NCBI GenBank assembly: GCA_963666425.2
Contig: OY762825.2
Location: 2,240,001 to 2,304,000, forward strand
Length of the DNA: 64,000 nt
Direction: 5' to 3'
Origin: Bacillota bacterium
GTDB lineage: Bacteria; Bacillota; JAAYKD01
In this document: piece after piece, positions 30,063-47,141 of the stretch
Layout of the letters: every line of letters begins with the position of its first letter
Position numbering within the stretch: the stretch's first letter is position 1
Position numbers and translations under genes: made by a program
The notes under the pieces: model-generated
What the model saw: only the letters and a program-made list of their open reading frames with translations
Told to the model about the DNA's origin: nothing
The model's database searches: none

Positions 30063-30749
30063 ATGATCATGGCACTCAGAAAAGAAATTTACTGGCATTC
30101 CAATCTCTGGAATCACTTTATGGCAAGCTTTAGCGATTTAGCAGGCATGCTTTTGCTCCGTGCGGCGCTGCTGCCGGCGATTTTCATCACAGCGGAATTA
30201 CTGCTGCTGCAATATTATCACTTTCTGTCCGGTTTATTGCCATTTTCGGAATTTTATCTGGCTTTGGCTGGCGTTGTTTGTTTATTGGCAGCGCTGGTCA
30301 CCGCTCGTCTGAGAATTCCGCCTGTGACCATTTTCTTGCGGAATTGCGGCGGCGGATTGATTTGCCTGGCGGTTTTGTGGCTGAGTGTTTTTCGTTATGG
30401 TCTGGCGGCATTTTGGCTTTTACCGGTTGATTTTCTTTTCGGTGATAGCAGCCTTTGGTTCAGCTCTGTTTACAATCTGCCCAATCAGGCGATTGCTCGT
30501 TGGATCATCAGCGCAAAAAGCCTGCTGACCAACGGCGGCGGAGGAACCCTGCAGGATTTTTTAAGTTTTTTTGTGCTGAAACCGATCCGGCAAGATGCGA
30601 TTTATTGGGCAATCCCTGCCGCGGTACTGGGGGTTACTCTTGTCATAGTACTCCTTTATTTTTTAATTGTGGGTTGTTTTTTTCTGCCGCTGCTGCCTGC
30701 CATTGCTGCTTATACCCTCTTAAGAAAAGGTTGGAATCTGCTCGTTTGA
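30063..30749 (+). CDS. Hypothetical integral membrane protein
   Basis: Highly hydrophobic 228 aa, AGGAG RBS, sigmaH-like promoter upstream. Confidence 0.65.
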   Translation: MIMALRKEIYWHSNLWNHFMASFSDLAGMLLLRAALLPAIFITAELLLLQYYHFLSGLLPFSEFYLALAGVVCLLAALVTARLRIPPVTIFLRNCGGGLICLAVLWLSVFRYGLAAFWLLPVDFLFGDSSLWFSSVYNLPNQAIARWIISAKSLLTNGGGGTLQDFLSFFVLKPIRQDAIYWAIPAAVLGVTLVIVLLYFLIVGCFFLPLLPAIAAYTLLRKGWNLLV

Positions 30750-30901: not shown

Positions 30902-32329
30902 ATGTCAATGAAACTAACCCGTGAACAGATCAATAAGATCATCGACGAATGTCAAAAACAAATCGTCAAGAATCCGCATAATAAAGAAGCGCACCATGAT
31001 TTGGCTGTAGCCCGCATGGAAGTCGGTCAATTTGATCAGGCTTTACCAGGCTTTTTAAAGGCGATCGAACTGGATCCCCGTTTTGTCAGTGCTACTTATT
31101 TAGCAGGTGTCTGTTATGCGGAATTGAACCGGCCGGATGAAGCGGTGGAGATGTGGAAAAAAACCTTGACCTTAAATAAACGGCATGATAACGCGATGTA
31201 CTTCATCGGTAAAATTTACGGAATGAAGGGCATGTGGGATATGGCCATTCATCAATTCAATCAAGCCATCAAGGTGAATGATGAAATCCCGCAGTATTAC
31301 CAGGCTCTGGCTGAAATGTATTTAGCCAAGGGGGAATTTCAGACCGCAGTGGAGAATTGGCAGAAAATCCTCACGCTTGATGAAAAAAATCTCCAGGCGC
31401 ATGTCAATTTATGCGCCTGTTATCTGGATATGCATGACCTAGAAAAATCAGTCCTGCACGGCGGCATCGCTGTCAGCTTGGGTGTGGTCAGTCCCACGCT
31501 CTATTACGATTTGGCGATGGCTTACCTTTTTGCCGGTATGTATGAAGACAGTATTAAGTATTTCCTGTTGGCTAAAGAAGGCGATGAAAATGATATCCCA
31601 ACCCGGCTTTCTTTGGGAGAAGCGTATATCGCCAATGGTGAACGTCAGAAGGCGATTGCAGAATGGCAAGAATTACTGGCAAAAGATGCTGCCTGCGTCG
31701 AAGCCTGGTACAATTTAGGTTTGGCTGCCGCACAGGATGAAAATTCCGAACAGGCGTTCGAATATTTTGATAAAGCACTGGCGCTGGATCCGAGTTATTT
31801 GCCCGCCACATCGAATAAAGGTATTTTGTTTTACCAATTGGGAAAACTGGATGAATCTCTGGAGCAATGGCAGAAAATTGTCAGCGTCGAACCGAATCAT
31901 ATTCAGGCGCTCGGTAATATTGTGGAAATCTACATGGATAAGAAAGACTTTGTGCAAGCAAAGAAAAATCTGGACCATGCGATTGAACTGCAGCCGGAGG
32001 AAGCCCGCTTTCAATACTTGAAGGGGTGTTACGACCTGACGCGCAATGATGTCAACGAAGCGCTGCCTGCCTGGCAGAAAGCTTACGCGCTCAATCCGGA
32101 GATTTTTGTGACCTATGCGACTCAAGTGCAGCTTCTGCTGACGGATGAGAAATACGAACACTTAATTGCCGCCGCCGGGGCGGACGATCGCGCTATGCTG
32201 CAAAAATTACAGGATGTGAAAAGCGGTCAGGCGGTCAAGCAGGTTTTGGAGCAAGCCAAGCGACAGGCAACGGTGCAGCAGGAAGAAAAAAAGAGCCTGA
32301 TGCAAAAAGTAAAGAATTTATTTAAGTAG
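30902..32329 (+). CDS. Tetratricopeptide-repeat protein
   Basis: About 11 successive 34-aa TPR units (e.g. AWYNLGLAAAQ...FDKALALDP); AAGGAGG RBS. Confidence 0.92.
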   Translation: MSMKLTREQINKIIDECQKQIVKNPHNKEAHHDLAVARMEVGQFDQALPGFLKAIELDPRFVSATYLAGVCYAELNRPDEAVEMWKKTLTLNKRHDNAMYFIGKIYGMKGMWDMAIHQFNQAIKVNDEIPQYYQALAEMYLAKGEFQTAVENWQKILTLDEKNLQAHVNLCACYLDMHDLEKSVLHGGIAVSLGVVSPTLYYDLAMAYLFAGMYEDSIKYFLLAKEGDENDIPTRLSLGEAYIANGERQKAIAEWQELLAKDAACVEAWYNLGLAAAQDENSEQAFEYFDKALALDPSYLPATSNKGILFYQLGKLDESLEQWQKIVSVEPNHIQALGNIVEIYMDKKDFVQAKKNLDHAIELQPEEARFQYLKGCYDLTRNDVNEALPAWQKAYALNPEIFVTYATQVQLLLTDEKYEHLIAAAGADDRAMLQKLQDVKSGQAVKQVLEQAKRQATVQQEEKKSLMQKVKNLFK

Positions 32330-32340
32330 GCGGACAGAGC

Positions 32341-34500
32341 ATGGATTTAATCAGACAAATAGCCAGAGAAAGCAAATTGCCGGAAAAATATCTGAATGCC
32401 GCGCTGCAGTTGCTGGATGAAGGCAATACCGTTCCCTTTATTTCCCGTTACCGTAAAGAAGTAACCGGTGAAATGGACGAAAATCAGCTGCGCTTCTTAG
32501 AAGAACGCATCGCTTATCTGCGAAATTTGGAAAAGCGCAAACAAGATGTGCTGGCCAGTATTGAGGAACAGGGAAAATTAACCGCCGAGCTGAGTGACAA
32601 AATCACCCAGGCTGCCATTCTGCAGGAAGTGGAAGATCTTTATCTGCCTTACCGTCCCAAACGCCGGACTCGAGCCAGTATGGCCAAAGAAAAAGGCTTG
32701 GAACCGCTGGCAATCTTATGCCTGCAGCAGTTTTTTACAACGGAAGCATTACAAAAAACAGCGGCAGGATTTATCACCGAGGACGGTTCCGTACAGGATG
32801 TGGCTGCAGCGCTGGCAGGTGCGCAGGACATTCTGGCGGAGAAAATTGCCGAGGATGCCGAACTGCGTACCTGGGTACGGAATTACAGCTTTAATCAGGC
32901 AATTCTGAAATCGCAAGCCGTTGCTGCGGAAAAGATCAGCGACTTCAGTGATTATTATGAGTATGAAGAACCGGTTTTACGCCTGCCGCCGCATCGTGTT
33001 CTGGCCTTGAACCGCGGAGAAACAGAAGGCTTTTTAAAGCTGAAACTGCTGACGCCCAGAGAACAGATTCTCAATCGGCTGCAGCTGGCTTATCAGGCGC
33101 CAAGTGGTTCTGCTGCAGCGGAGTTGGTGGCAGCTGCCGCAGCGGATGGCTATGATCGCTTGATGACCCCTTCCATCGAACGGGATATTCGTACTGCGCT
33201 CAGCGAAAAAGCAGAAATCCATGCCATTGAGAGTTTTGCAGAAAATGTGCGCAACTTATTGCTGCAGCCGCCTGTGCGCAATCGGGTCGTCATGGGAGTG
33301 GACCCGGCGTTTCGCACGGGATGCAAATTGGCAGTTGTCGATGGCACCGGAAAATTGCTGGATTTGGCTGTGATCTATCCAACGCCGCCACACCGCGAAA
33401 CAGAGCAATCCGCTGTCAAAATGACAGCGCTGATCGAAAAACACCAAGTCGATTGCCTGGCCATTGGCAATGGCACTGCTTCCCGCGAAACTGAAACTTT
33501 CGTGGCGGAGACATTGAAAAAAATCCCGCGCTCTGTTTTTTATACCATCGTCAACGAAGCGGGGGCTTCGGTCTATTCCGCATCGAAATTGGCAGGCGAA
33601 GAGTTCCCTGCTTTGGATGTCTCGGAGCGCAGTGCAATTTCAATTGCCCGTCGTTTACAGGACCCTTTGGCGGAATTGGTGAAAATCGATCCGAAGAGCA
33701 TTGGGGTTGGTCTATATCAGCATGATGTCAATCAAAAACAATTGGGTAAAAAGCTGGATATGGTAGTGGAAAGTGTTGTCAATCATGTGGGAGTCGATTT
33801 GAATACCGCCTCACCCTCACTGCTGCAATATGTTTCCGGTTTGAAGGCGAATGTCGCTAAAAATATCGTTGCTTATCGGGAAGAAAACCAGCGCTTCAAG
33901 AAGCGAGCGGAATTGAAAAAGGTCGCGGGTTTGGGTGCACAAAGTTTTGTGCAGGCTGCCGGTTTCCTGCGGATAACGGACGGTGACGAACCGTTTGACA
34001 ATACTCCAATTCATCCGGAGAGTTATCCTGCCGTGAAAAATTTATTGGCGATGTTAAAAATCCATTGGAACAAGGCGGGAATTACGGAATTTACGGCCAT
34101 CCAGAAAACGCTGACCGATCAGGATATCGAACAATTAGCAGCGGCTTTACAGATCGGTATTCCTACTCTGCGTGATATTTTGGAAGCACTGGCTCGTCCC
34201 GGCCGGGATCCCCGAGATGATTTGCCGCCTGTCGTATTTTCCCGCGATGTGCTGAATATGGAAGATGTGAAGATTGGCATGATCCTGCAGGGTATTGTTC
34301 GTAATGTGGTTGATTTTGGCTGTTTTGTGGATATTGGAGTGCATCAGGACGGCTTAGTGCATGTATCGGAAATTTCCTATAGCAGGATCAGTCATCCATC
34401 CAATGCGGTGAAAGTAGGCGATCACGTTCAGGTAATGGTAATCTCGTTGGATAAGCAACGAAATCGGATCGGATTGAGCATGAAGCAGGCAAAAAAATAA
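32341..34500 (+). CDS. tex: Tex (YhgF) transcription accessory RNA-binding protein
   Basis: GNTVPFISRYRKEVTG, GVDPAFRTGCK, NEAGASVYSAS, C-terminal S1 domain. Confidence 0.97.
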   Translation: MDLIRQIARESKLPEKYLNAALQLLDEGNTVPFISRYRKEVTGEMDENQLRFLEERIAYLRNLEKRKQDVLASIEEQGKLTAELSDKITQAAILQEVEDLYLPYRPKRRTRASMAKEKGLEPLAILCLQQFFTTEALQKTAAGFITEDGSVQDVAAALAGAQDILAEKIAEDAELRTWVRNYSFNQAILKSQAVAAEKISDFSDYYEYEEPVLRLPPHRVLALNRGETEGFLKLKLLTPREQILNRLQLAYQAPSGSAAAELVAAAAADGYDRLMTPSIERDIRTALSEKAEIHAIESFAENVRNLLLQPPVRNRVVMGVDPAFRTGCKLAVVDGTGKLLDLAVIYPTPPHRETEQSAVKMTALIEKHQVDCLAIGNGTASRETETFVAETLKKIPRSVFYTIVNEAGASVYSASKLAGEEFPALDVSERSAISIARRLQDPLAELVKIDPKSIGVGLYQHDVNQKQLGKKLDMVVESVVNHVGVDLNTASPSLLQYVSGLKANVAKNIVAYREENQRFKKRAELKKVAGLGAQSFVQAAGFLRITDGDEPFDNTPIHPESYPAVKNLLAMLKIHWNKAGITEFTAIQKTLTDQDIEQLAAALQIGIPTLRDILEALARPGRDPRDDLPPVVFSRDVLNMEDVKIGMILQGIVRNVVDFGCFVDIGVHQDGLVHVSEISYSRISHPSNAVKVGDHVQVMVISLDKQRNRIGLSMKQAKK

Positions 34501-34515
34501 GCAGAAGGTGATAAT

Positions 34516-35187
34516 TTGGCAAAACGCAAAAAGAAAGATGCGGCTGAAAATTCAAAGCAGACAAGTGCAGCGGCCGGCAAAAAGGGACAGATCCGTGATG
34601 AAAAAGGAAAAATCGGCTGGACAGAAGTACCCGGCGAAATATTACTGGACTGGAAAGGCCGACCTTGGCGGGCTCGACCTAAAAAGTTAACCGTTCTGAC
34701 GCTTTTTTATGTTTTTCTCTTCCTGCTGGCAATTAAAGTACTCCCAGAATTCGGGATTTTTCTGGCTGTCATTCCTTTGGTTCTGCTGGGGAATTCTTCA
34801 TCCCATCTGGTGAACAGCTATTATGTGGTAACAACCGAAGGTGTCTATTGGAAAAATTTTGCGAACCAAATGTTTAAACCCTGGATCGCGATCGAAGGCT
34901 TTATTTTTGAAGATGAAATGGCAGAATTATTTTTTGAACGCGGTAATATCCGGGCACGCATTCAGCGCAGCATGCCGGTCTATTATGATCAGAACAGAGA
35001 AGAAGTGGAACGCGTGATTCGGGAATATCACGGCGCTGTTTGGAAGCAAATCCGGGAGCGCGTGGAGAGCGAGGATGCTCGGATCAGGGAAGAAGTGGTT
35101 GCGAAACTTGAGGGGAAGACAGAAGAAGAAACCGTAGAAAAAACCGTAGAAAAATCGGATGAGAAAGGAGTGGAGACGAATGAGTAA
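34516..35187 (+). CDS. Membrane protein, 2 TM + bacterial PH-like domain
   Basis: Two hydrophobic helices then Y.VT.EGV..K.....KPW (bPH-like); acidic tail. Confidence 0.65.
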   Translation: MAKRKKKDAAENSKQTSAAAGKKGQIRDEKGKIGWTEVPGEILLDWKGRPWRARPKKLTVLTLFYVFLFLLAIKVLPEFGIFLAVIPLVLLGNSSSHLVNSYYVVTTEGVYWKNFANQMFKPWIAIEGFIFEDEMAELFFERGNIRARIQRSMPVYYDQNREEVERVIREYHGAVWKQIRERVESEDARIREEVVAKLEGKTEEETVEKTVEKSDEKGVETNE

Positions 35188-35593
35188 AAATAATGACGAG
35201 AAAATTCCTGCCAGCCCCAATCCGATTTTAGAACCGGATTACTACGAACTGGATCCTACCCGCCGCGATTTTATCGTAGACTATATGGCCAAAAAAATTG
35301 ATAAATACCAAATGGCGACGCCGGCTATCATATTTTTGGAAGCCGGGCGTCCGGTAAGTTTTATCGGCGGTTCTCTTGTTTGGGGCGCAGCTCCGTTTTT
35401 GAATATCTTTGTCAATGATCAATATGTTCGCGAAATTGCGCTCTTTCTCGAAGACAGAAAGAACATCGAACTGCTGATTGAGAAAATTGAAAGCATGGAA
35501 TATGAACGTGTCGCACGCGAGAAAATTGAAAAACAGGAAGCAAAGAAACGCGCGATTGCGGAAGGCAGAAAACCCTGGTGGAAGTTCTGGTGA
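35180..35593 (+). CDS. Conserved hypothetical protein of the GlmL-like module
   Basis: MAKKIDKYQMATPAIIFLEAGRPVSFIGG...FLEDRKNIELLIEKIE; overlaps previous gene; C-terminal KPWWKFW. Confidence 0.75.
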   Translation: MSKNNDEKIPASPNPILEPDYYELDPTRRDFIVDYMAKKIDKYQMATPAIIFLEAGRPVSFIGGSLVWGAAPFLNIFVNDQYVREIALFLEDRKNIELLIEKIESMEYERVAREKIEKQEAKKRAIAEGRKPWWKFW

Positions 35594-35787
35594 TTGATGC
35601 AGTCGTAAAAGCTCGAAATTGACTAGCAAAGCGTGTGTAAATTGATACTATTAGTTTCTTTTTCAACATGGAAGGGTTTTATCTCATAAAAAGCGAAAAG
35701 AGTTTGGTATTTAACGGCAGCTTGTTTCATTTTCGTAGTCCTACGGAAAAGTCAAGTGTGCCATTAAGGTAAGAAGGAGGAACGTTC

Positions 35788-37662
35788 ATGGCTCATGAAG
35801 TGAAGCGAGAAGCAATAACTCGCGAGATCAATTCCATTATTGCCACGGACTGCGGATCGACAACAACAAAGGCAATCTTGATTGAAAAGGTTGACGGCGC
35901 GTATCGTTTGATCAATCGTGGTGAATCCCCTACAACCGTCGAGGCACCTTTCGAAGATGTTACCGCAGGTGTCCGCAATGCAGTTCATGAATTGGAAGAA
36001 CTGGTAGGCCGTATATTTTTAGGCCCTGACGGTGTTGTTACACCCAGACAAGCAGACGGCACAGGTGTTGACATTTATTTGTCTACTTCTTCCGCCGGTG
36101 GTGGTTTGCAGATGATGGTTGCCGGTGTTGTAAAATCAATGACCGCTGAATCTGCCCAACGTGCTGCTCTAGGCGCCGGTGCTATTGTTATGGATGTCAT
36201 TTCCATTGATGATGGCCGCAAAGCCTATGAGAAAATCCAACGAATTCGTCAATTGCGTCCGGATATGATTCTTTTATCCGGTGGTATTGACGGAGGCACC
36301 ATTACGCACGTTGTTGAAATCGCCGAGTTGATTTCTGCTGCAGAACCGAAACCGCGTCTTGGTATTGGCTTTAAACTTCCGATTATTTACGCCGGCAACA
36401 AAGAAGCCCGTAAGTACATTACCGACATCCTGGAAAAGAAAGTTGACTTACGTATTGTAGACAACCTTCGTCCTGTTCTGGAATCGGAAAACCTTGGACC
36501 GGCGCGTGAAGAAATTCATAACCTGTTCATGGAGCATGTTATGGCTCAGGCTCCTGGCTATAATAAATTAATGCAATGGACCGAAGTGCCGATCATGCCG
36601 ACGCCTGGTGCAGTTGGTAAAATCATTCAAACATGCGCAGCTGAGTACAATATCCATATCATTGGTGTGGATATCGGCGGTGCTACTACCGACGTTTTCT
36701 CCGTCTTCGGCGATGATCATGAGTTCTTCAATCGTACCGTTTCTGCCAACCTTGGTATGAGCTATTCCATTTGCAACGTTTTGTTGGAAGCAGGCGTAGA
36801 CAATATCATGCGTTGGGTTCCTTTCGATATCGATGAAGCCGATCTTCGCAACCGTATCCGTAATAAAATGATTCGTCCTACCACCATCCCGCAGACTTTG
36901 GATGAACTGGTAATTGAACAGGCAGTTTCCCGTGAAGCATTGCGCCTTTCCTTTATCCATCATAAATCCTTAGCCACCGGTCTGAAGGGCGTTCAAAAAG
37001 TGCGTGATATTTCCGAAGCTTTTGATACTTCCTCTTCCAGTGATACCGTTATCAATCTGATGGACCTTGGTATGATCGTCGGTTCCGGCGGCGTTTTATC
37101 GCATGCTCCCCGCCGTCAACAGACAGCTTTGATGATGCTTGACTCCTTCCAATTAGAAGGCTTCACCGAGTTAACCGTTGACTCCATCTTCATGACTCCG
37201 CAATTAGGCGTTTTATCCGAAGTGCTTCCGAAGGCTGCTGCCGAAGTATTCGATCGTGACTGCTTGATCTTCTTAGGTACCGCTATCTGCCCGGTAGGCA
37301 ATGCGCAAAAAGACGGCGAAAAATGCGTCACCGTCAAAGCGACCATGCCGAATGGCGAAGTGATCACCAAAGAAGTAGCATATGGTTCTTTGGCTACCAT
37401 CCCATTGGGAGAAACAGAATATGCCGAAGTGGAAGTAACTCCTTCCAGCAATTTCGATATGGGCAACGGTAAAGGCAGAGCCATCAATAAAAAAGTGCGC
37501 GGCGGTGTAGCCGGTGGTATCATCATTGATGCCCGCGGTCGTCGTCCTTTCAGTTTACCGACCGACAAGAGCGCTCGTATCGCGAAATTGTTTGAATGGT
37601 TCAAAGCTCTGGACATCTATTCCATGGATGTTCTGGAACGCTATATGAAGACATCGAAGTAA
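35788..37662 (+). CDS. GlmL/MutL-like (glutamate mutase L family) ASKHA-fold ATPase
   Basis: ATDCGSTTTKA (phosphate 1), SSAGGGL, MPTPGAV, GVDIGGATTDVFS (phosphate 2), RTVSANLGMSYS, GSGGVLSH; AAGGAGG RBS. Confidence 0.9.
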   Translation: MAHEVKREAITREINSIIATDCGSTTTKAILIEKVDGAYRLINRGESPTTVEAPFEDVTAGVRNAVHELEELVGRIFLGPDGVVTPRQADGTGVDIYLSTSSAGGGLQMMVAGVVKSMTAESAQRAALGAGAIVMDVISIDDGRKAYEKIQRIRQLRPDMILLSGGIDGGTITHVVEIAELISAAEPKPRLGIGFKLPIIYAGNKEARKYITDILEKKVDLRIVDNLRPVLESENLGPAREEIHNLFMEHVMAQAPGYNKLMQWTEVPIMPTPGAVGKIIQTCAAEYNIHIIGVDIGGATTDVFSVFGDDHEFFNRTVSANLGMSYSICNVLLEAGVDNIMRWVPFDIDEADLRNRIRNKMIRPTTIPQTLDELVIEQAVSREALRLSFIHHKSLATGLKGVQKVRDISEAFDTSSSSDTVINLMDLGMIVGSGGVLSHAPRRQQTALMMLDSFQLEGFTELTVDSIFMTPQLGVLSEVLPKAAAEVFDRDCLIFLGTAICPVGNAQKDGEKCVTVKATMPNGEVITKEVAYGSLATIPLGETEYAEVEVTPSSNFDMGNGKGRAINKKVRGGVAGGIIIDARGRRPFSLPTDKSARIAKLFEWFKALDIYSMDVLERYMKTSK

Positions 37663-37693
37663 TTCAAATTGTGTATGAAAGGAGCGGCAATCA

Positions 37694-38815
37694 ATGGCTA
37701 ATGCTTATACCCCAGGACTTAAGGTAACGGCTGCCTCTATAATTTCCAAGAAGCGTCGTTTGCCTATTTTAGGCGAAGTGCTGGTACAAAAAGGTTCCAA
37801 AGTGAGCCCAGAGACCCCTGTAGCCAAAGCATATATTCCCGGCAATCCCCAATCGATAAACGTTGCGAATATCCTCGGCTGCGAAGCGGAAGATATTGAA
37901 GGTTACATGAAAAAAAAGGCGGGAGACACCATCGCAAAAGATGAAGTTCTTGCCTCTTCAAAAACATTCTTTGGTCTGTTCAAGACCGAATGCAAGTCTC
38001 CTGTTGCCGGCACAGTAGAACATGTATCAGAAGTTACCGGTCAGGTTATTATTCGTGAACCGGCAATGCCGATTGTGATCAATGCCTATGTCACTGGTAC
38101 CGTTACCGAGATTATCGACCGTGAAGGCGTTACCGTAGAAACCAAAGGTGCCTTTATTCAAGGTATTTTCGGTGTTGGCGGCGAGCGTGAAGGCGTTCTG
38201 AAAATGATCAGCCAGAATCACGATGAAGTCCTTGACGGACCTGCGATTACTGCGGATTGCAAGGATAAAATTATCGTCGGTGGTTCCTTGATGACTGCGG
38301 CTGCAATCAAAAAAGCAGCTTCTGTCGGTGCCCGTGGTATTGTAGCCGGCGGTATCATCGATAAAGATTTGGTGGACTTCCTTGGCTTCGATATTGGTGT
38401 TGCCATTACCGGCCATGAAGATATTCCTCTTACCTTAATCGTCACCGAAGGCTTTGGTAAAATCCCGATGGCCAACAAGACATTTGATCTTCTAAAATCA
38501 CTGGAGGGCATGACTGCTTCCATCAATGGCGCCACGCAAATTCGTGCCGGCGTTATGCGTCCGGAAATCATTGTTCCCAACGAAACGGCTGTGGTTCGCG
38601 AATCCACCATCGACTTGGAAGGTAATTTGGATTCCGGCACGGTTGTTCGCTGTATCCGTGAACCATATTTCGGTCAATTGGCCGAAATCGTGGATTTGCC
38701 GCCGGAATTGGTTGTCATTGAAACCGGCGCCAAAGTACGTATTATGCATGTGAAATTGCGCAATGGCGAAGTCGTTGTTGTTCCGCGTGCCAACGTCGAG
38801 TTAATTGAAGAGTAA
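37694..38815 (+). CDS. Hypothetical protein with barrel-sandwich-hybrid motifs and C-terminal KOW/SH3-like domain
   Basis: MANAYTPGLKV; V.KG..V and K.GD.I..DEVLA...KSPVAGTV hybrid motifs; VRCIREPYFGQ...VPRANVELIEE. Confidence 0.75.
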   Translation: MANAYTPGLKVTAASIISKKRRLPILGEVLVQKGSKVSPETPVAKAYIPGNPQSINVANILGCEAEDIEGYMKKKAGDTIAKDEVLASSKTFFGLFKTECKSPVAGTVEHVSEVTGQVIIREPAMPIVINAYVTGTVTEIIDREGVTVETKGAFIQGIFGVGGEREGVLKMISQNHDEVLDGPAITADCKDKIIVGGSLMTAAAIKKAASVGARGIVAGGIIDKDLVDFLGFDIGVAITGHEDIPLTLIVTEGFGKIPMANKTFDLLKSLEGMTASINGATQIRAGVMRPEIIVPNETAVVRESTIDLEGNLDSGTVVRCIREPYFGQLAEIVDLPPELVVIETGAKVRIMHVKLRNGEVVVVPRANVELIEE

Positions 38816-38824
38816 TTGAACATT

Positions 38825-38858
38825 AAAAAACCTCACTATTTCGGTAGTGGGGTTTTTT
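38825..38858 (+). terminator. Bidirectional terminator closing the GlmL-like operon
   Basis: AAAAAACCTCACTA-tttcgg-TAGTGGGGTTTTTT. Confidence 0.85.
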
Positions 38859-38950
38859 GCGTGTACAGACGTGAAAATACCGGCTTTTTCAGCTGAACAA
38901 AATGATATAGCTGATCGATAGAACAAAAATAGAGGTAATGAAAAGGGGAT

Positions 38951-39787
38951 TCATTTTCCTTTTAGCTCTATCAATTTCAAATCTGTCTCAATTTGCTGAA
39001 TGCTTTTCTCCGGAGTGGAAAGATTTTCTGGCATAGTACCGCCAATATCCTTGATTGCTTTCCGAACTTTCTTACCAACTTCGAAGTGTGTTTTATTAGC
39101 AGCTGTTTTATCGGTAATTCCATCCTTGTTTAATTTTTCTTCGGTTTGTGTTGCACGGAAAAGATTCGCTGCAAGCTCGGTGCTGCCCATATGATCCAGT
39201 ATTTTTTGACTTGATTTCAACCCTTTATTTTTATGAATTTCCTTAACACCAAGACCACCGTATAAACCCTGATAACCCTTGTTTTGGAATATGGCATAAT
39301 CCTGAGGTGTTGCAACTACTGCGGTTTTTGCGATTTCAGCTAGGGCTTTGTTATGTGAGATCATTTCATTGCGGATGGCCAAGCGTTTTTGATTCTCGGA
39401 AAGTTGATCATAATTGTCAATCAGTTCTTGTTGCCTGGTTTTTACGGCAAAATAGGTTTGACCAAGTGCAATGACGTCTTTGCGTGGATTACCGTTTTGG
39501 ACAATGAGATAGCAAGCATAGCGGGAAAGCATATAATCGTTGATCGGTTTAGGAGCAACACCTGCAGCAACCATTTTGCTGACCTTAGCAAAATGGGCAG
39601 AAACGATATTTTTACTCTTCTCACAAGCGGTTTTGGCTTTTTCAATAACTAATTCGAAATTACGCCATTGTGAATATTCTAAAATTGGTTGCAGTTCTCT
39701 GGCTGACCAATATTCATTACCTCCCTCTGTATAATGCTTTATGCTCTCAAAAATCTCTTCGGAATAGTTTTGTATCGGTCCCATCAA
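38951..39787 (-). CDS. dinD: DNA damage-inducible protein D (BRO-like N-terminus)
   Basis: EYWSARELQ..LEY, LSRYACYLIVQNG.PRK, AIFQNKGYQGLYGG, ILDHMGSTELAANLFRATQTE. Confidence 0.93.
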   Translation of the reverse strand: MMGPIQNYSEEIFESIKHYTEGGNEYWSARELQPILEYSQWRNFELVIEKAKTACEKSKNIVSAHFAKVSKMVAAGVAPKPINDYMLSRYACYLIVQNGNPRKDVIALGQTYFAVKTRQQELIDNYDQLSENQKRLAIRNEMISHNKALAEIAKTAVVATPQDYAIFQNKGYQGLYGGLGVKEIHKNKGLKSSQKILDHMGSTELAANLFRATQTEEKLNKDGITDKTAANKTHFEVGKKVRKAIKDIGGTMPENLSTPEKSIQQIETDLKLIELKGK

Positions 39788-43590: not shown

Positions 43591-43750
43591 CCTGAGAAAA
43601 TGGCAGAGTAGGGCTTAGCTGCGCTACGAAAAAGGCACTTCAGAGTCGGCAAAAGAGCAAGGGAAACAGGCATAGACTATCTTTTCTGGTCAGAGTGTTT
43701 TCAATGCCGCAAGGCGTTTGAGAAATAGAGTAAGCAAAGGAGTTGTTTTG

Positions 43751-45142
43751 ATGAACGAAATCGCATTAAAGACGATCGAAGCAAGACGCAAAGAATTGAT
43801 TCAAATCAGCGACTACATCTGGGAGAATCCCGAGCCGGCTTATGTGGAATACAAAGCGGTTGCTGCCCTGAAAAAATTTCTGGTGGACGATGGCTTCCGC
43901 TTGCAAGACGAAGTCGCCGGCATGCCCACTGCTTTTATGGCTTCCTGGGGCTCAGGCAAGCCTGTCATCGGTTTTCTGGCCGAATATGATGCTTTACCCG
44001 GGCTCAGCCAAAAAGCCAGCACAGAGCTTGATCCGGTGATTCCTAATGCACCCGGTCAAGGCTGCGGCCATAATTTGCTGGGCGTAGCCACCTTGGGTGC
44101 TGTGATCGGCTTAAAGCAAGAGATGATTGAAAATCATCTGCCCGGCACGATCATCTTCTATGGCTGCCCTGCCGAAGAAGTACTGACCGGAAAAACTTTC
44201 ATGGCACGCGGCGGTGTCTTTGATGGTCTTGACTTGGCTTTGGCCTATCATCCCGGCCGTGGCAACAATGTCGGTTTGGATAGCTCCAATGGTCTCAATT
44301 CTGCCGTCTTTCACTTCAGAGGCCGCACTGCCCATGCCGGCGGTGATCCGCATAACGGCCGCAGTGCGCTCGATGCCGTGGAATTAATGAATGTCGGCGC
44401 TAATTATTTAAGAGAACATGTCACCACAGACGTGAGAATCCACTATGTCATCAAAGAAGGCGGCATGGCGCCCAATATTGTGCCGGATAAGGCCTCCGTT
44501 TGGTATTATGTCCGTGGTCCGAAACGCAGTGTGATTGATGAAGTCTATGCACGGCTGATCAAAGTGGCCAAAGGCGCTGCGATGATGACCGAAACGGAAA
44601 TGGAAATCGAATTCCTGGGCGGCTGTCATAATACGATGCCAAACAAGGTGCTGGCCAATGTCTTGTATGACAGCATGAAAGCAATTCCGCCGGAAACCTG
44701 GACTGCGGAAGAATTGGCTTTTGCCAAACGTCTCAATGACCAGCAGCCGGTCCAGTATCCCGCCGCCTTGAAACAGATGAATCTGCCGGAAGGTACAGAG
44801 ATCGCCGCCGGCGTCAGTCCCATGATTGCCACCGGAAGAATCGGCGGCGGTTCTACCGACGTTGGTGACGTGGAACATATCGTGCCCTGCGCTTCGTTCG
44901 GCACTGCCACCGATAATCTGGGTGCTCCCGGTCATAGTTGGCAGATCACTTCCTGCTCCGGTATGAGCATCGGTCATAAAGGTATGATCTATGCCGCTAA
45001 AATAATGGCGGATGCGGCTGGCAACCTGCTGCGTGATCCGGAAACCGTCGCCAAAGCCAAAGCGGAATTCCTGGAAGCAACCGGCGGTAAGCCCTATCAA
45101 TGCCCGATTCCACCGGAAGTAAAAGCTCCCGGTCAGAAATAA
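43751..45142 (+). CDS. M20 amidohydrolase, AbgB-like
   Basis: EYDALPGLSQ, GCGHNLLG, GCPAEE, GRSALDAVELM, GSTDVGDV. Confidence 0.9.
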   Translation: MNEIALKTIEARRKELIQISDYIWENPEPAYVEYKAVAALKKFLVDDGFRLQDEVAGMPTAFMASWGSGKPVIGFLAEYDALPGLSQKASTELDPVIPNAPGQGCGHNLLGVATLGAVIGLKQEMIENHLPGTIIFYGCPAEEVLTGKTFMARGGVFDGLDLALAYHPGRGNNVGLDSSNGLNSAVFHFRGRTAHAGGDPHNGRSALDAVELMNVGANYLREHVTTDVRIHYVIKEGGMAPNIVPDKASVWYYVRGPKRSVIDEVYARLIKVAKGAAMMTETEMEIEFLGGCHNTMPNKVLANVLYDSMKAIPPETWTAEELAFAKRLNDQQPVQYPAALKQMNLPEGTEIAAGVSPMIATGRIGGGSTDVGDVEHIVPCASFGTATDNLGAPGHSWQITSCSGMSIGHKGMIYAAKIMADAAGNLLRDPETVAKAKAEFLEATGGKPYQCPIPPEVKAPGQK

Positions 45143-46145: not shown

Positions 46146-46298
46146 GGTCGTAAAATTGATAATTCATCCATATTAGGTAAAATATTCTTTAGCGGATTTA
46201 TAGGAAACGAAATAAGGTGAATCCTATGTAAGCTGAACCGTGCCAAAGAGTTGTACCCTGCCTATGGAAACCTACCAAATGAAATGGAGGGGATTATC

Positions 46299-47141
46299 AT
46301 GCCTTGGTATCAAAGACTCATGAAAATCGATCAGCGTATCTTATACCTAACGATGTTTCTGGGAATTGCCGGAGTCATGTTTTTTCCGATCGGCTTACCG
46401 GTACCTGCGGAAGAATCTACGCTGGCCAGCTGGGATTACATCAATGCTCTACCGGCGGATAGCGTCGTACTCTATTCCTTTGATACGAGTGCTTCTGCCA
46501 TGACAGAAACAAAACCACCTGCGGAAGTGCTTCTGCGCCGTTCTTTTGAATTGGGACATAAAGTGGTAATGATTTCCACCACAGCGGATTCCAACAGCCT
46601 TTCCTCGCTTTGGATTGATCCCATCATAGAAGAGTTGGGGAAAGTTTATGGTAAAGATGTTGTGCATTTGGGATTCATTGTGAACTGGCAATCGTTTATG
46701 GAACAATCAAGAACAGATCTTTCCGGTGCTTTGGGCGGTATCGACAAATATGGCACGAAATTGTCGGAGCTTCCGATGATGAAAACAATCACCAAAGCAA
46801 CTGATTTTGCTTGTGTGTTTTCTTTTTATGGAACCGACCCCGGGCCGAACGGTTGGATCAATATGTGGAATGCAACGGAGGGTATTGATGTACTCACAGC
46901 TTGTACAGCGGTTTCTACACCGGTGTGCTACAATTACTATCAATCCGGCTTATTGAAAGGAGTCGTAGGTGGGATTGGTGGTGCTGCTTATTTGGAGATG
47001 CTGGCAGGACGCCCGGCTTCGGCTGTTTCCGCTATGGATGCGCAATCGCTCGGTCATATCATTATCATAGCTTTTTTGATTCTTGGTAATCTCAGCTATT
47101 TTATCAACAGGCATTATGAAAAAAGAAAAGTTACCAAGTGA
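46299..47141 (+). CDS. Uncharacterised membrane protein (N-terminal TM, alpha/beta soluble domain, C-terminal TM)
   Basis: IDQRILY...P, YGKD.V.LGF, YYQSG..KG..GG..GAA..E, MDAQS.GH.III.F.I.GN; ATG behind GGAGG. Confidence 0.8.
   Translation: MPWYQRLMKIDQRILYLTMFLGIAGVMFFPIGLPVPAEESTLASWDYINALPADSVVLYSFDTSASAMTETKPPAEVLLRRSFELGHKVVMISTTADSNSLSSLWIDPIIEELGKVYGKDVVHLGFIVNWQSFMEQSRTDLSGALGGIDKYGTKLSELPMMKTITKATDFACVFSFYGTDPGPNGWINMWNATEGIDVLTACTAVSTPVCYNYYQSGLLKGVVGGIGGAAYLEMLAGRPASAVSAMDAQSLGHIIIIAFLILGNLSYFINRHYEKRKVTK

Follow-up and report, generated by a model that had tools for sequence, protein, structure and literature searches.

Gene organization of the locus

The 64,000-nucleotide stretch analyzed here (the window) comes from the genome of a Bacillota bacterium (contig OY762825.2, positions 2,240,001 to 2,304,000 of the forward strand) and contains a group of four genes, A to D. 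The product of C belongs to the protein family that includes the mutase-linked proteins GlmL and Or-4, and D encodes its putative partner. We present evidence that C and D probably act as a two-protein ATPase distinct from mutase-linked GlmL and that they co-occur with a cassette of four membrane protein genes (DUF6754-f5-E-f6), and we weigh what such a system might do. The original prediction, made from this DNA alone, described four co-oriented genes closed by a strong terminator; all four open reading frames (ORFs) were indeed found on the plus strand, followed by a hairpin that folds well. The features, including an orphan cassette gene farther downstream, are as follows.

34516-35187, plus strand: A, an ORF of 223 amino acids (aa) with a TTG start; its product, a small membrane protein, combines a hydrophobic hairpin region with a C-terminal domain.
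35180-35593, plus strand: B, 137 aa from the ATG at 35180 (144 aa if read from 35159, ORF 35159-35593).
35594-35787, plus strand: spacer of 194 bp before C, with the ribosome-binding site AAGGAGG.
35788-37662, plus strand: C, a 624-aa ASKHA-fold ATPase (Pfam MutL, PF13941) with a C-terminal extension of ~130 aa.
37694-38815, plus strand: D (373 aa), which pairs with C and combines a barrel-sandwich hybrid domain with a swivel-like alpha/beta domain and a KOW-like end.
~38826-38860, plus strand: intrinsic terminator-like hairpin with a T run closing the C-D unit, found by folding.
46251-47141, plus strand: E, an orphan copy of the third cassette protein, in which membrane segments at both ends flank a Rossmann-like domain of predicted outward orientation.

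The hairpin at ~38826-38860 folds at -18.5 kcal/mol (z, -6.1), and none of 200 shuffled sequences did equally well. It is absent from the listing of a consensus terminator scan, though folding confirmed it.

C belongs to a clade separate from mutase-linked GlmL

The translation of C contains the complete ASKHA motifs that had been read in it, TDCGSTTTK, VDIGGATTD, and GSGG. The corresponding phosphate-1 (DxGSTxTK), phosphate-2 (DxGGATTD), and adenosine (GxGG) motifs are present in C and all five paralogs and are invariant in the alignment of C homologs (A2), in which mean column identity is 65% across phyla, including archaea. Judged by its sequence, C is a member of the ASKHA ATPase superfamily and is predicted to hydrolyze ATP. 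It matches Pfam MutL over model positions 1 to 450 of 450 with 420.4 bits, well above the gathering cutoff of 27. Its scores fall below the cutoffs of the equivalog models for GlmL (NF040745; 222 versus 475 bits) and Or-4 (NF040744; 206.7 versus 600 bits) and of the GlmL subfamily model TIGR01319 (171.2 versus 204.05 bits). Matches to the Hydantoinase/oxoprolinase families PF01968 and PF05378 are subthreshold (19.0 versus 22.9 and 19.5 versus 25.2 bits), and a PDB sequence search with C returned no matches.

Two kinds of PF13941 protein are found among 101 genomes of the window's phylum, of which 37 hold the family, 6 hold D, 6 hold DUF6754, and 5 hold both of the latter. A long form (580 to 650 aa, 335 to 427 bits) is confined to those five genomes; the sixth D-holding genome (G058) has a variant C beside D and no DUF6754. 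PF13941 without D occurs in 31 genomes, and all of these except G132 carry only short forms, that is, open frames of ~450 to 700 aa, most of them 450 to 490 aa, scoring 460 to 610 bits. G132, itself without D, has a 1245-aa open frame (G132:C156:22377-23924) with a full but low-scoring MutL domain (277 bits), which may represent a further architecture within the family.

Twelve short forms were retrieved and serve as the mutase-linked rows of a phylogenetic tree. Seven of them were confirmed to lie beside a GlmE, GlmS, or OraE-like gene (L103, L106, L109, L111, and L114 by Pfam; L104 and L105 by coordinates), and the remaining five adjoin a GlmE-sized ORF whose identity was unchecked. The corrected, unrooted tree has 64 rows, comprising the 12 mutase-linked GlmL/Or-4 proteins, 48 D-linked proteins, and 4 fused forms. 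All 12 mutase-linked rows lie on one side of a branch with a Shimodaira-Hasegawa-like approximate likelihood ratio (SH-aLRT) support of 100, and all 52 other rows lie on the other, in agreement with the separate clade that the original prediction called for. D-linked rows are short-branched in this tree; in the first tree, the branch leading to the mutase-linked clade had a length of 2.49.

The C-type proteins share an 8-residue insert, a RNKMIRPTTIPQT segment, the sequence SHAPRR after GSGG, and a tail of 99 to 136 residues, and they are without the 12- to 15-residue insert of the mutase-linked forms. With GlmL/MutL, the methylaspartate (glutamate) mutase accessory protein (NF040745, PF13941), C has the three ASKHA motifs in common as well as SSAGGGL and GG.DGG, but it differs from GlmL in all of these clade-specific features (the extra C-terminal residues of C itself number ~130), in the position of its gene, which does not lie between glmS and glmE as canonical members adjoin GlmS/GlmE, and in its obligate partner D, which the 31 GlmL-only genomes do not have. 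Or-4 (NF040744), a GlmL-related protein of ornithine degradation, belongs to the same Pfam family and has a similar core length, but C is not beside an OraE-type aminomutase gene. Both types coexist in the Bacillota genomes G003, G004, G007, G008, and G009, where a short GlmL-like gene lies beside an OraE-like gene and several long C-type genes lie beside D. The ATP-binding subunits of hydantoinase A, oxoprolinase, and acetone carboxylase are distant ASKHA relatives in multisubunit ATP-dependent enzymes; C has only the subthreshold Pfam matches given above, and D is unlike HyuB-type subunits as far as Pfam shows. DdrA/PduG (diol dehydratase reactivase) and EutA, likewise ASKHA ATPases, have an additional swivel-type domain or partner, and their ATP-driven action is on another protein. 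C has no Pfam match to these families at E values up to 0.01. Taken together, the alignments and tree indicate that C is not a mutase-linked GlmL but a member of a distinct long clade. On this assignment, the annotation "glutamate mutase L" on C-type genes is wrong and unfit for inferring B12-dependent fermentation.

The genomic context agrees with the original prediction that C is not tied to mutases. No mutase or B12-binding gene lies in the window, as had been noted, and the four PF02310 matches of the genome are all elsewhere. The source genome (3.2 Mb, 98.5% complete) encodes a lysine 5,6-aminomutase (KamD/KamE) ~1.3 Mb away from C, at the site of its only PF09043 gene, and a methylmalonyl-CoA mutase; neither is near a C gene, all five PF13941 genes of the genome are C-type, and PF06368 (GlmE) has no match in it. 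Among 49 D-holding genomes, GlmE was found in none (the search recovered it in four of four known carriers) and KamD/OraE in six, and 43 have neither. Two observations had been named as evidence that C is a reactivase after all: an orphan B12 mutase in the genome and clustering of C with mutase-linked GlmL. The first was found, in that KamDE has no GlmL-type gene adjacent to it, and the second was not.

C and D are predicted to form a two-protein ATPase

The five C paralogs of the source genome (580 to 624 aa) are each accompanied by an adjacent D paralog, arranged as C-D in two loci and as D-X-C in the other three, X being a protein of ~285 aa (282 to 287 aa) with no family and no relatives among the neighbors in other phyla. 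In a sample of 80 fetched loci plus the window (81 sources, many of the loci being short contigs), C adjoins D in 41, and a C-type gene is present in 48 of the 49 D-holding genomes, even where C and D are unlinked. Natural fusions point the same way: all four long forms fetched (952 to 1091 aa) are C-like in front and D-like behind, and in P0142 (995 aa) a complete C (58% identity) is joined to a complete D (47%) behind it.

Structure prediction of the C-D complex, proposed earlier as a check, gave a confident interface, with a score of 0.77 compared with 0.00 for the best of three controls. Of 80 solved complexes, 58 attained this mark, as did 2 of 110 mismatched pairs; these counts are only rough because our own alignments were used. 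At least 94% of contacts agree between runs, with partner predicted local distance difference test (pLDDT) values of at least 84. The predicted interface comprises residues 354-374, 183-194, and 439-442 of C and 281-284, 321-326, and 363-369 of D, and it reaches the phosphate loops of C (S24, A299). It falls on the clade-specific segments of C (RNKMIRPTTIPQT, 358-370; the insert, 186-193; SHAPRR, 438-443) and on invariant motifs of D. Judging from the pairing, the fusions, and the model, C and D probably form one two-protein ATPase.

In some Ignavibacteria and Zixibacteria, lineage-specific genes are inserted between C and D. At the C2/D2 locus of the source genome, a CDP-alcohol phosphatidyltransferase gene (C1:1184149-1184886; L010:12149-12886) shares 4 bases with the start of C2; RadA is encoded upstream, and TsaB/TsaD-like genes are found downstream of D2. 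Paralog locus 5 (C1:732738-736319; L013) has the look of partial decay: D5 stops early at a TAA that falls within the profile match, and X5, for which no start codon is evident, extends over the called start of C5. The gene directly after C5 encodes an MFS carrier.

D itself belongs to no curated family, and an Atlas search returned only its own unnamed clusters. Its first domain weakly resembles the N-terminal barrel-sandwich hybrid of NqrA/RnfC, with weak matches to NQRA_N, RnfC_N, and Biotin_lipoyl. The Biotin_lipoyl match (PF00364) scores 18.4 bits, under the cutoff of 22.1 (E, 0.002); in paralog D2, the E values are 1e-7 for NQRA_N and 5.6e-7 for Biotin_lipoyl. No Lys is invariant among 30 D sequences, and there is no invariant Lys or His able to carry a cofactor. 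The AlphaFold 2 model of D (pLDDT, 85) gave domain-level Foldseek matches only, including the KOW of Spt5/NusG, and no whole-chain structural match in the PDB; by sequence, the PDB yielded only weak NusG and RraA matches. Compared with NusG/Spt5, a KOW-sized end and part of the Thermotoga maritima NusG insert domain match, with no match to NGN. D differs from NqrA/RnfC in being without redox domains.

D is widespread. A word-based search found at least 8000 candidate homologs, the named ones all "hypothetical" or similar, and a library of representatives held 522 clusters (50% identity) at E values up to 1e-30. Identity to D is 59 to 65% across Bacillota and 52 to 57% in WOR-3, Zixibacteria, Poribacteria, Armatimonadota, Ignavibacteria, Fermentibacteria, and Thermoproteota archaea, and mean column identity is 60%. 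From these searches the system appears to span many bacterial phyla (more than a dozen), candidate phyla, and Thermoproteota archaea.

C and D co-occur with a four-gene membrane cassette and with B

The original prediction stated, correctly, that these families co-occur with DUF6754-type membrane proteins. DUF6754 (PF20539) is present in 49 of 50 D-holding genomes, the single miss being a 0.6-Mb bin, and in none of 14 control (model) genomes. It is the first gene of a cassette that continues with f5 (~207 aa), E (~280 aa), and f6 (~210 aa) and that lies beside C-D in 15 of the 80 loci, in one to three tandem copies. These 15 loci come from Zixibacteria, Ignavibacteria, Fermentibacteria, Latescibacterota, Fibrobacterota, Poribacteria, a Bacillota-like metagenome-assembled genome, and a Thermoproteota archaeon. 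Against a PF20539 cutoff of 27 bits, the DUF6754 protein of one such locus (L055) scores 410 bits, and four genes of the source genome, none of them in the window, score 248 to 302 bits. The source genome has four complete cassettes outside the window in addition to the orphan E within it. What the compared genomes show directly is that C pairs with D, that the genes are linked, and that all parts co-occur across lineages.

By hydropathy, f5 and f6 have four to five hydrophobic segments each, and DUF6754 and E have a membrane segment at both ends. Because of the charge distribution, the soluble domain of DUF6754 is predicted to be cytoplasmic and that of E to face outward. Some DUF6754 proteins have an N-terminal FN3 domain ahead of the first membrane segment, and only this extension matched in a PDB sequence search with DUF6754; the same search with E gave no matches. 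Long DUF6754 proteins also occur (792 to 912 aa; L037:9151-11862 and G050:C25:154-897), with an ~640-aa N-terminal extension that has no Pfam match. An origin of the cassette by internal duplication was considered and ruled out, since hhalign detects homology neither of f5 to f6 nor of E to DUF6754; the four families show no detectable relationship.

Most non-Bacillota genomes have one C, one B, and up to seven DUF6754 copies; G024, G026, G033, and G039, for example, each have one C and one B with 5, 5, 6, and 6 copies of DUF6754, respectively. In a recent tandem duplicate of the cassette in the source genome, the DUF6754, f5, and f6 copies are 98, 95, and 97% identical, and those of E only 74%.

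B was found in 47 of the 49 D-holding genomes, 45 of which have a single copy. Its moderately hydrophobic core (VPAI.FLE..KPLSFIGSQ) is conserved, and its tail is rich in Lys and Glu. In most genomes B directly precedes C; in six (G012, G017, G020, G045, G046, and G048) it directly precedes DUF6754, and C and D are scattered in those genomes. The position of B beside either C or DUF6754 therefore ties the two modules together independently of C-D adjacency. The conserved synteny proposed for the four genes of the window holds for B, C, and D, which are widely linked, and less so for A, homologs of which lie upstream of B-C-D in 18 of the 81 sources.

Two further observations concern cassette surroundings in the source genome. 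Two tandem cassettes (C1:1104427-1111612, minus strand; L014) lie directly upstream of gap-pgk-tpi-pgm-eno on the same strand. A pair of related ORFs (31% identity) lies near cassette genes, one of 474 aa in the window (43718-45142, plus strand), ~1 kb upstream of the orphan E, and the other of 424 aa (C1:2234721-2235995), ~4 kb downstream of the nearest full cassette.

The searches made here turned up no curated family, solved structure, or defense system model covering D, B, A, f5, E, or f6, and PADLOC anti-phage models assigned no family to A, B, C, D, E, DUF6754, f5, f6, or X. A literature search found no paper naming DUF6754, PF20539, PF13941, TIGR01319, "methylaspartate mutase accessory," or "GlmL family," and a search of the GlmL, MutL, glutamate mutase, ASKHA, and reactivase literature found nothing on the C-type clade. 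One paper lists glutamate mutase among actin-fold enzymes (PMC5597319). The system comprises seven or eight proteins for which no known function, solved relative, or paper was found, and the conservation of C and D is close to that of core housekeeping proteins. Its absence from the 14 control model genomes may explain why it has been overlooked.

A putative shared ATP-using module for membrane modules

Since one C and one B stand against many copies of DUF6754, and since E has diverged within the cassette, we tentatively favor a reading in which one shared ATP-using cytoplasmic module serves several membrane modules whose outward part varies, probably in solute uptake. The C-D ATPase together with B, and often A, would be the single-copy cytoplasmic part, and the four-gene cassette would be the membrane part, so that one B-C-D set would serve several paralogous cassettes. 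E would be the variable, outward-facing specificity part, f5 and f6 would form the route across the membrane, C-D would be bound at the cytoplasmic face via B and DUF6754, and the role of the whole would be ATP-dependent solute uptake. We infer the docking and the transport, and likewise any substrate. The larger claim, that this is a new class of membrane machine and the first solute transport powered by an actin-fold (ASKHA) ATPase in place of an ABC, P-type, or rotary one, with a shared B-C-D motor for several DUF6754-f5-E-f6 modules, is possible but doubtful. An ATP-driven membrane system of this kind would, if real, represent a new kind of energy coupling.

In gene logic only, this arrangement is reminiscent of energy-coupling factor (ECF)-type transporters, in which a shared energizing module works with several membrane specificity parts: here, too, there is one cytoplasmic set and several diverged membrane modules. 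It differs from ECF systems in that the cassette consists of four unrelated proteins and that no ABC-type ATPase domain is present in C, D, or the cassette proteins of L055. No sequence similarity was found; C, D, and the DUF6754, f5, E, and f6 proteins of L055 match no ABC_tran or permease family, nor do the cassette proteins of the source genome in NCBIfam.

As to substrate, the neighbors of the system in a few lineages hint at amino acids or peptides. In L075, gcvT-H-PA-PB precedes the system, which is followed by LplA and a TonB-dependent receptor; in L022, peptidases of families C26 and S58 precede it; and in L018, two Amidohydro_1/3-family genes follow it, one identified by Pfam and the other by clustering. 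Pfam was run on one locus of each kind. The original prediction that this clade is the cytoplasmic energizing or processing part of a membrane complex, rather than a reactivase, agrees with the separate clade, the DUF6754 link, the lack of a mutase tie, and the C-D interface; its tentative suggestion of peptide or amino acid uptake would fit the gene neighbors in a few lineages.

Several observations weigh against a transport role. Each neighbor hint is limited to a single lineage or a few related ones. Exposed domains, that of E included, can change fast for reasons other than substrate choice, and the E model (pLDDT, 89.6) shows a generic Rossmann-like lobe whose best structural match (Z, 9.4, by Foldseek and a wider structural search) is among many unrelated folds. 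In the L055 cassette (Pfam) and those of the source genome (NCBIfam), f5, E, and f6 match no transporter family, and f5 has no usable named match in the Atlas. We know of no transporter driven by an ASKHA ATPase. The complex model covers the C-D pair, and contact of C-D with membrane proteins is what we infer beyond it. None of the five C-D pairs of the source genome adjoins a cassette, the nearest being ~45 kb upstream of C. Lone D genes occur in WOR-3, Poribacteria, and Armatimonadota among unrelated genes; their neighbors (topoisomerase I, AP endonuclease, AccA, TMEM260-like, ABC-2, and sigma factor genes) were considered and look unrelated. Finally, the gradient of mean column identity, from 65% in C and 60% in D through 42 to 51% in the cassette proteins to 32 to 33% in A and B, would suit a metabolic enzyme too.

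Alternative explanations

C-D could be a soluble two-subunit ATP-dependent enzyme, either a kinase or an activating enzyme of the hydantoinase/oxoprolinase kind, that spends ATP on a metabolite imported by the cassette or, for the paralogs, by an MFS carrier, and not on transport. The weak, subthreshold matches of C to Hydantoinase_A and Hydant_A_N are in keeping with this idea, as are the very high conservation of C and D and the invariant D residues T281, R284, R322-F326, and R365-N367, which are predicted to lie beside S24, A299, and H439-P441 of C and would suit a shared active site. The neighboring peptidase, amidohydrolase-family, and glycine cleavage genes, the MFS carrier gene directly after the paralog pair C5-D5, and the overlap of C2 with the CDP-alcohol phosphatidyltransferase gene would fit as well. 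However, one C-D set with up to seven diverged cassettes is better explained by a substrate-blind shared module, B is single copy, has the look of a membrane-associated protein, and lies beside C or DUF6754, and the conserved neighbors include no catalytic partner such as HyuB (PF02538 was not directly searched). We regard an enzyme of this sort as unlikely, though worth keeping in mind; an enzyme with its own carrier would mark an unknown central pathway.

Another possibility is a role in building or remodeling the envelope or membrane, not in solute uptake, with C-D as an actin- or Hsp70-like ATP-driven assembly factor for membrane proteins or surface polymers. PilM, FtsA, and MreB are ASKHA proteins that work at membranes. 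Paralog pairs of the source genome lie beside genes for the CDP-alcohol phosphatidyltransferase, an MBOAT protein with an AlgX-like SGNH protein, and a lipoprotein-like product; some DUF6754 proteins have external FN3 domains or extensions of up to ~640 aa; and C and D are conserved over their whole length, as proteins with many contacts are. We nevertheless consider this role improbable, given that no envelope synthesis gene is conserved beside the main C-D pair across phyla and that the system occurs in one-membrane and two-membrane bacteria and in archaea, the envelopes of which differ.

Very unlikely, in our estimation, is a third possibility, that C is a cofactor repair chaperone (reactivase), as GlmL is presumed to be, for an enzyme besides the mutases searched for here, with D as its adaptor. 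C does score 420 bits against Pfam MutL, and D has a swivel-like alpha/beta domain, swivel domains being present in diol dehydratase reactivase. In the first tree, the mutase-linked clade branched among divergent D-linked paralogs, where long-branch effects are likely. Nearby genes, however, include no conserved candidate client enzyme, and a repair chaperone would leave the tight phyletic link to four membrane proteins unexplained. Least credible of all, to the point of being hardly worth entertaining, is an ordinary GlmL/Or-4-type reactivase acting in trans on the KamDE of the source genome, for, although KamD and KamE are encoded there and all five PF13941 genes are C-type and distant from them, 43 of 49 D-holding genomes are without both KamD/OraE and GlmE, the five Bacillota genomes named above keep a short GlmL-like gene beside their OraE-like gene in addition to their C-type genes, C scores under the GlmL, Or-4, and TIGR01319 cutoffs and lies outside the clan of 12 mutase-linked rows, and the five pairs, D, and the DUF6754 link would be left unexplained.

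Transcription and neighboring genes in the window

A had been read as a protein with two transmembrane segments. A hydropathy scan found one clear membrane segment, and a second, shorter hydrophobic stretch comes directly after it in the sequence. Neither A nor B matches a Pfam or NCBIfam family, A has no paralog in the source genome, and mean column identity in the alignment of A homologs (A9) is 33%. Because the gene for a Tex-like protein (32341-34500, plus strand) ends 15 bases before the TTG start of A, A and B may be transcribed with that gene rather than with C-D. The spacer at 35594-35787 may act as a separate promoter region for C-D; a consensus scan listed no promoter-like site in it.

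A high-expression-type codon bias had been proposed for C and D on the basis of CGT, GGT, and ATC. The share of CGT among Arg codons is 0.64 in C and 0.79 in D versus 0.22 genome-wide, and that of GGT is 0.49 and 0.45 versus 0.33, so the proposal stands for these two codons. It fails for ATC, which is unbiased (0.51 and 0.41 versus 0.47 genome-wide). Codon usage in A, B, and the paralogs is unbiased. C and D are covered by RNA contigs from four libraries (three studies); the evidence is weak, as contigs cannot rank expression. A, B, and the region downstream are uncovered, and missing cover proves nothing. C and D look highly expressed in the source genome.

Upstream of the Tex-like gene lie genes for a TPR protein (30902-32329) and for a polytopic membrane protein without a family assignment (30063-30749). 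Just beyond the terminator, on the opposite strand (38951-39787, minus), is a gene for a 278-aa protein with a BRO-N domain, a domain that is often phage related.

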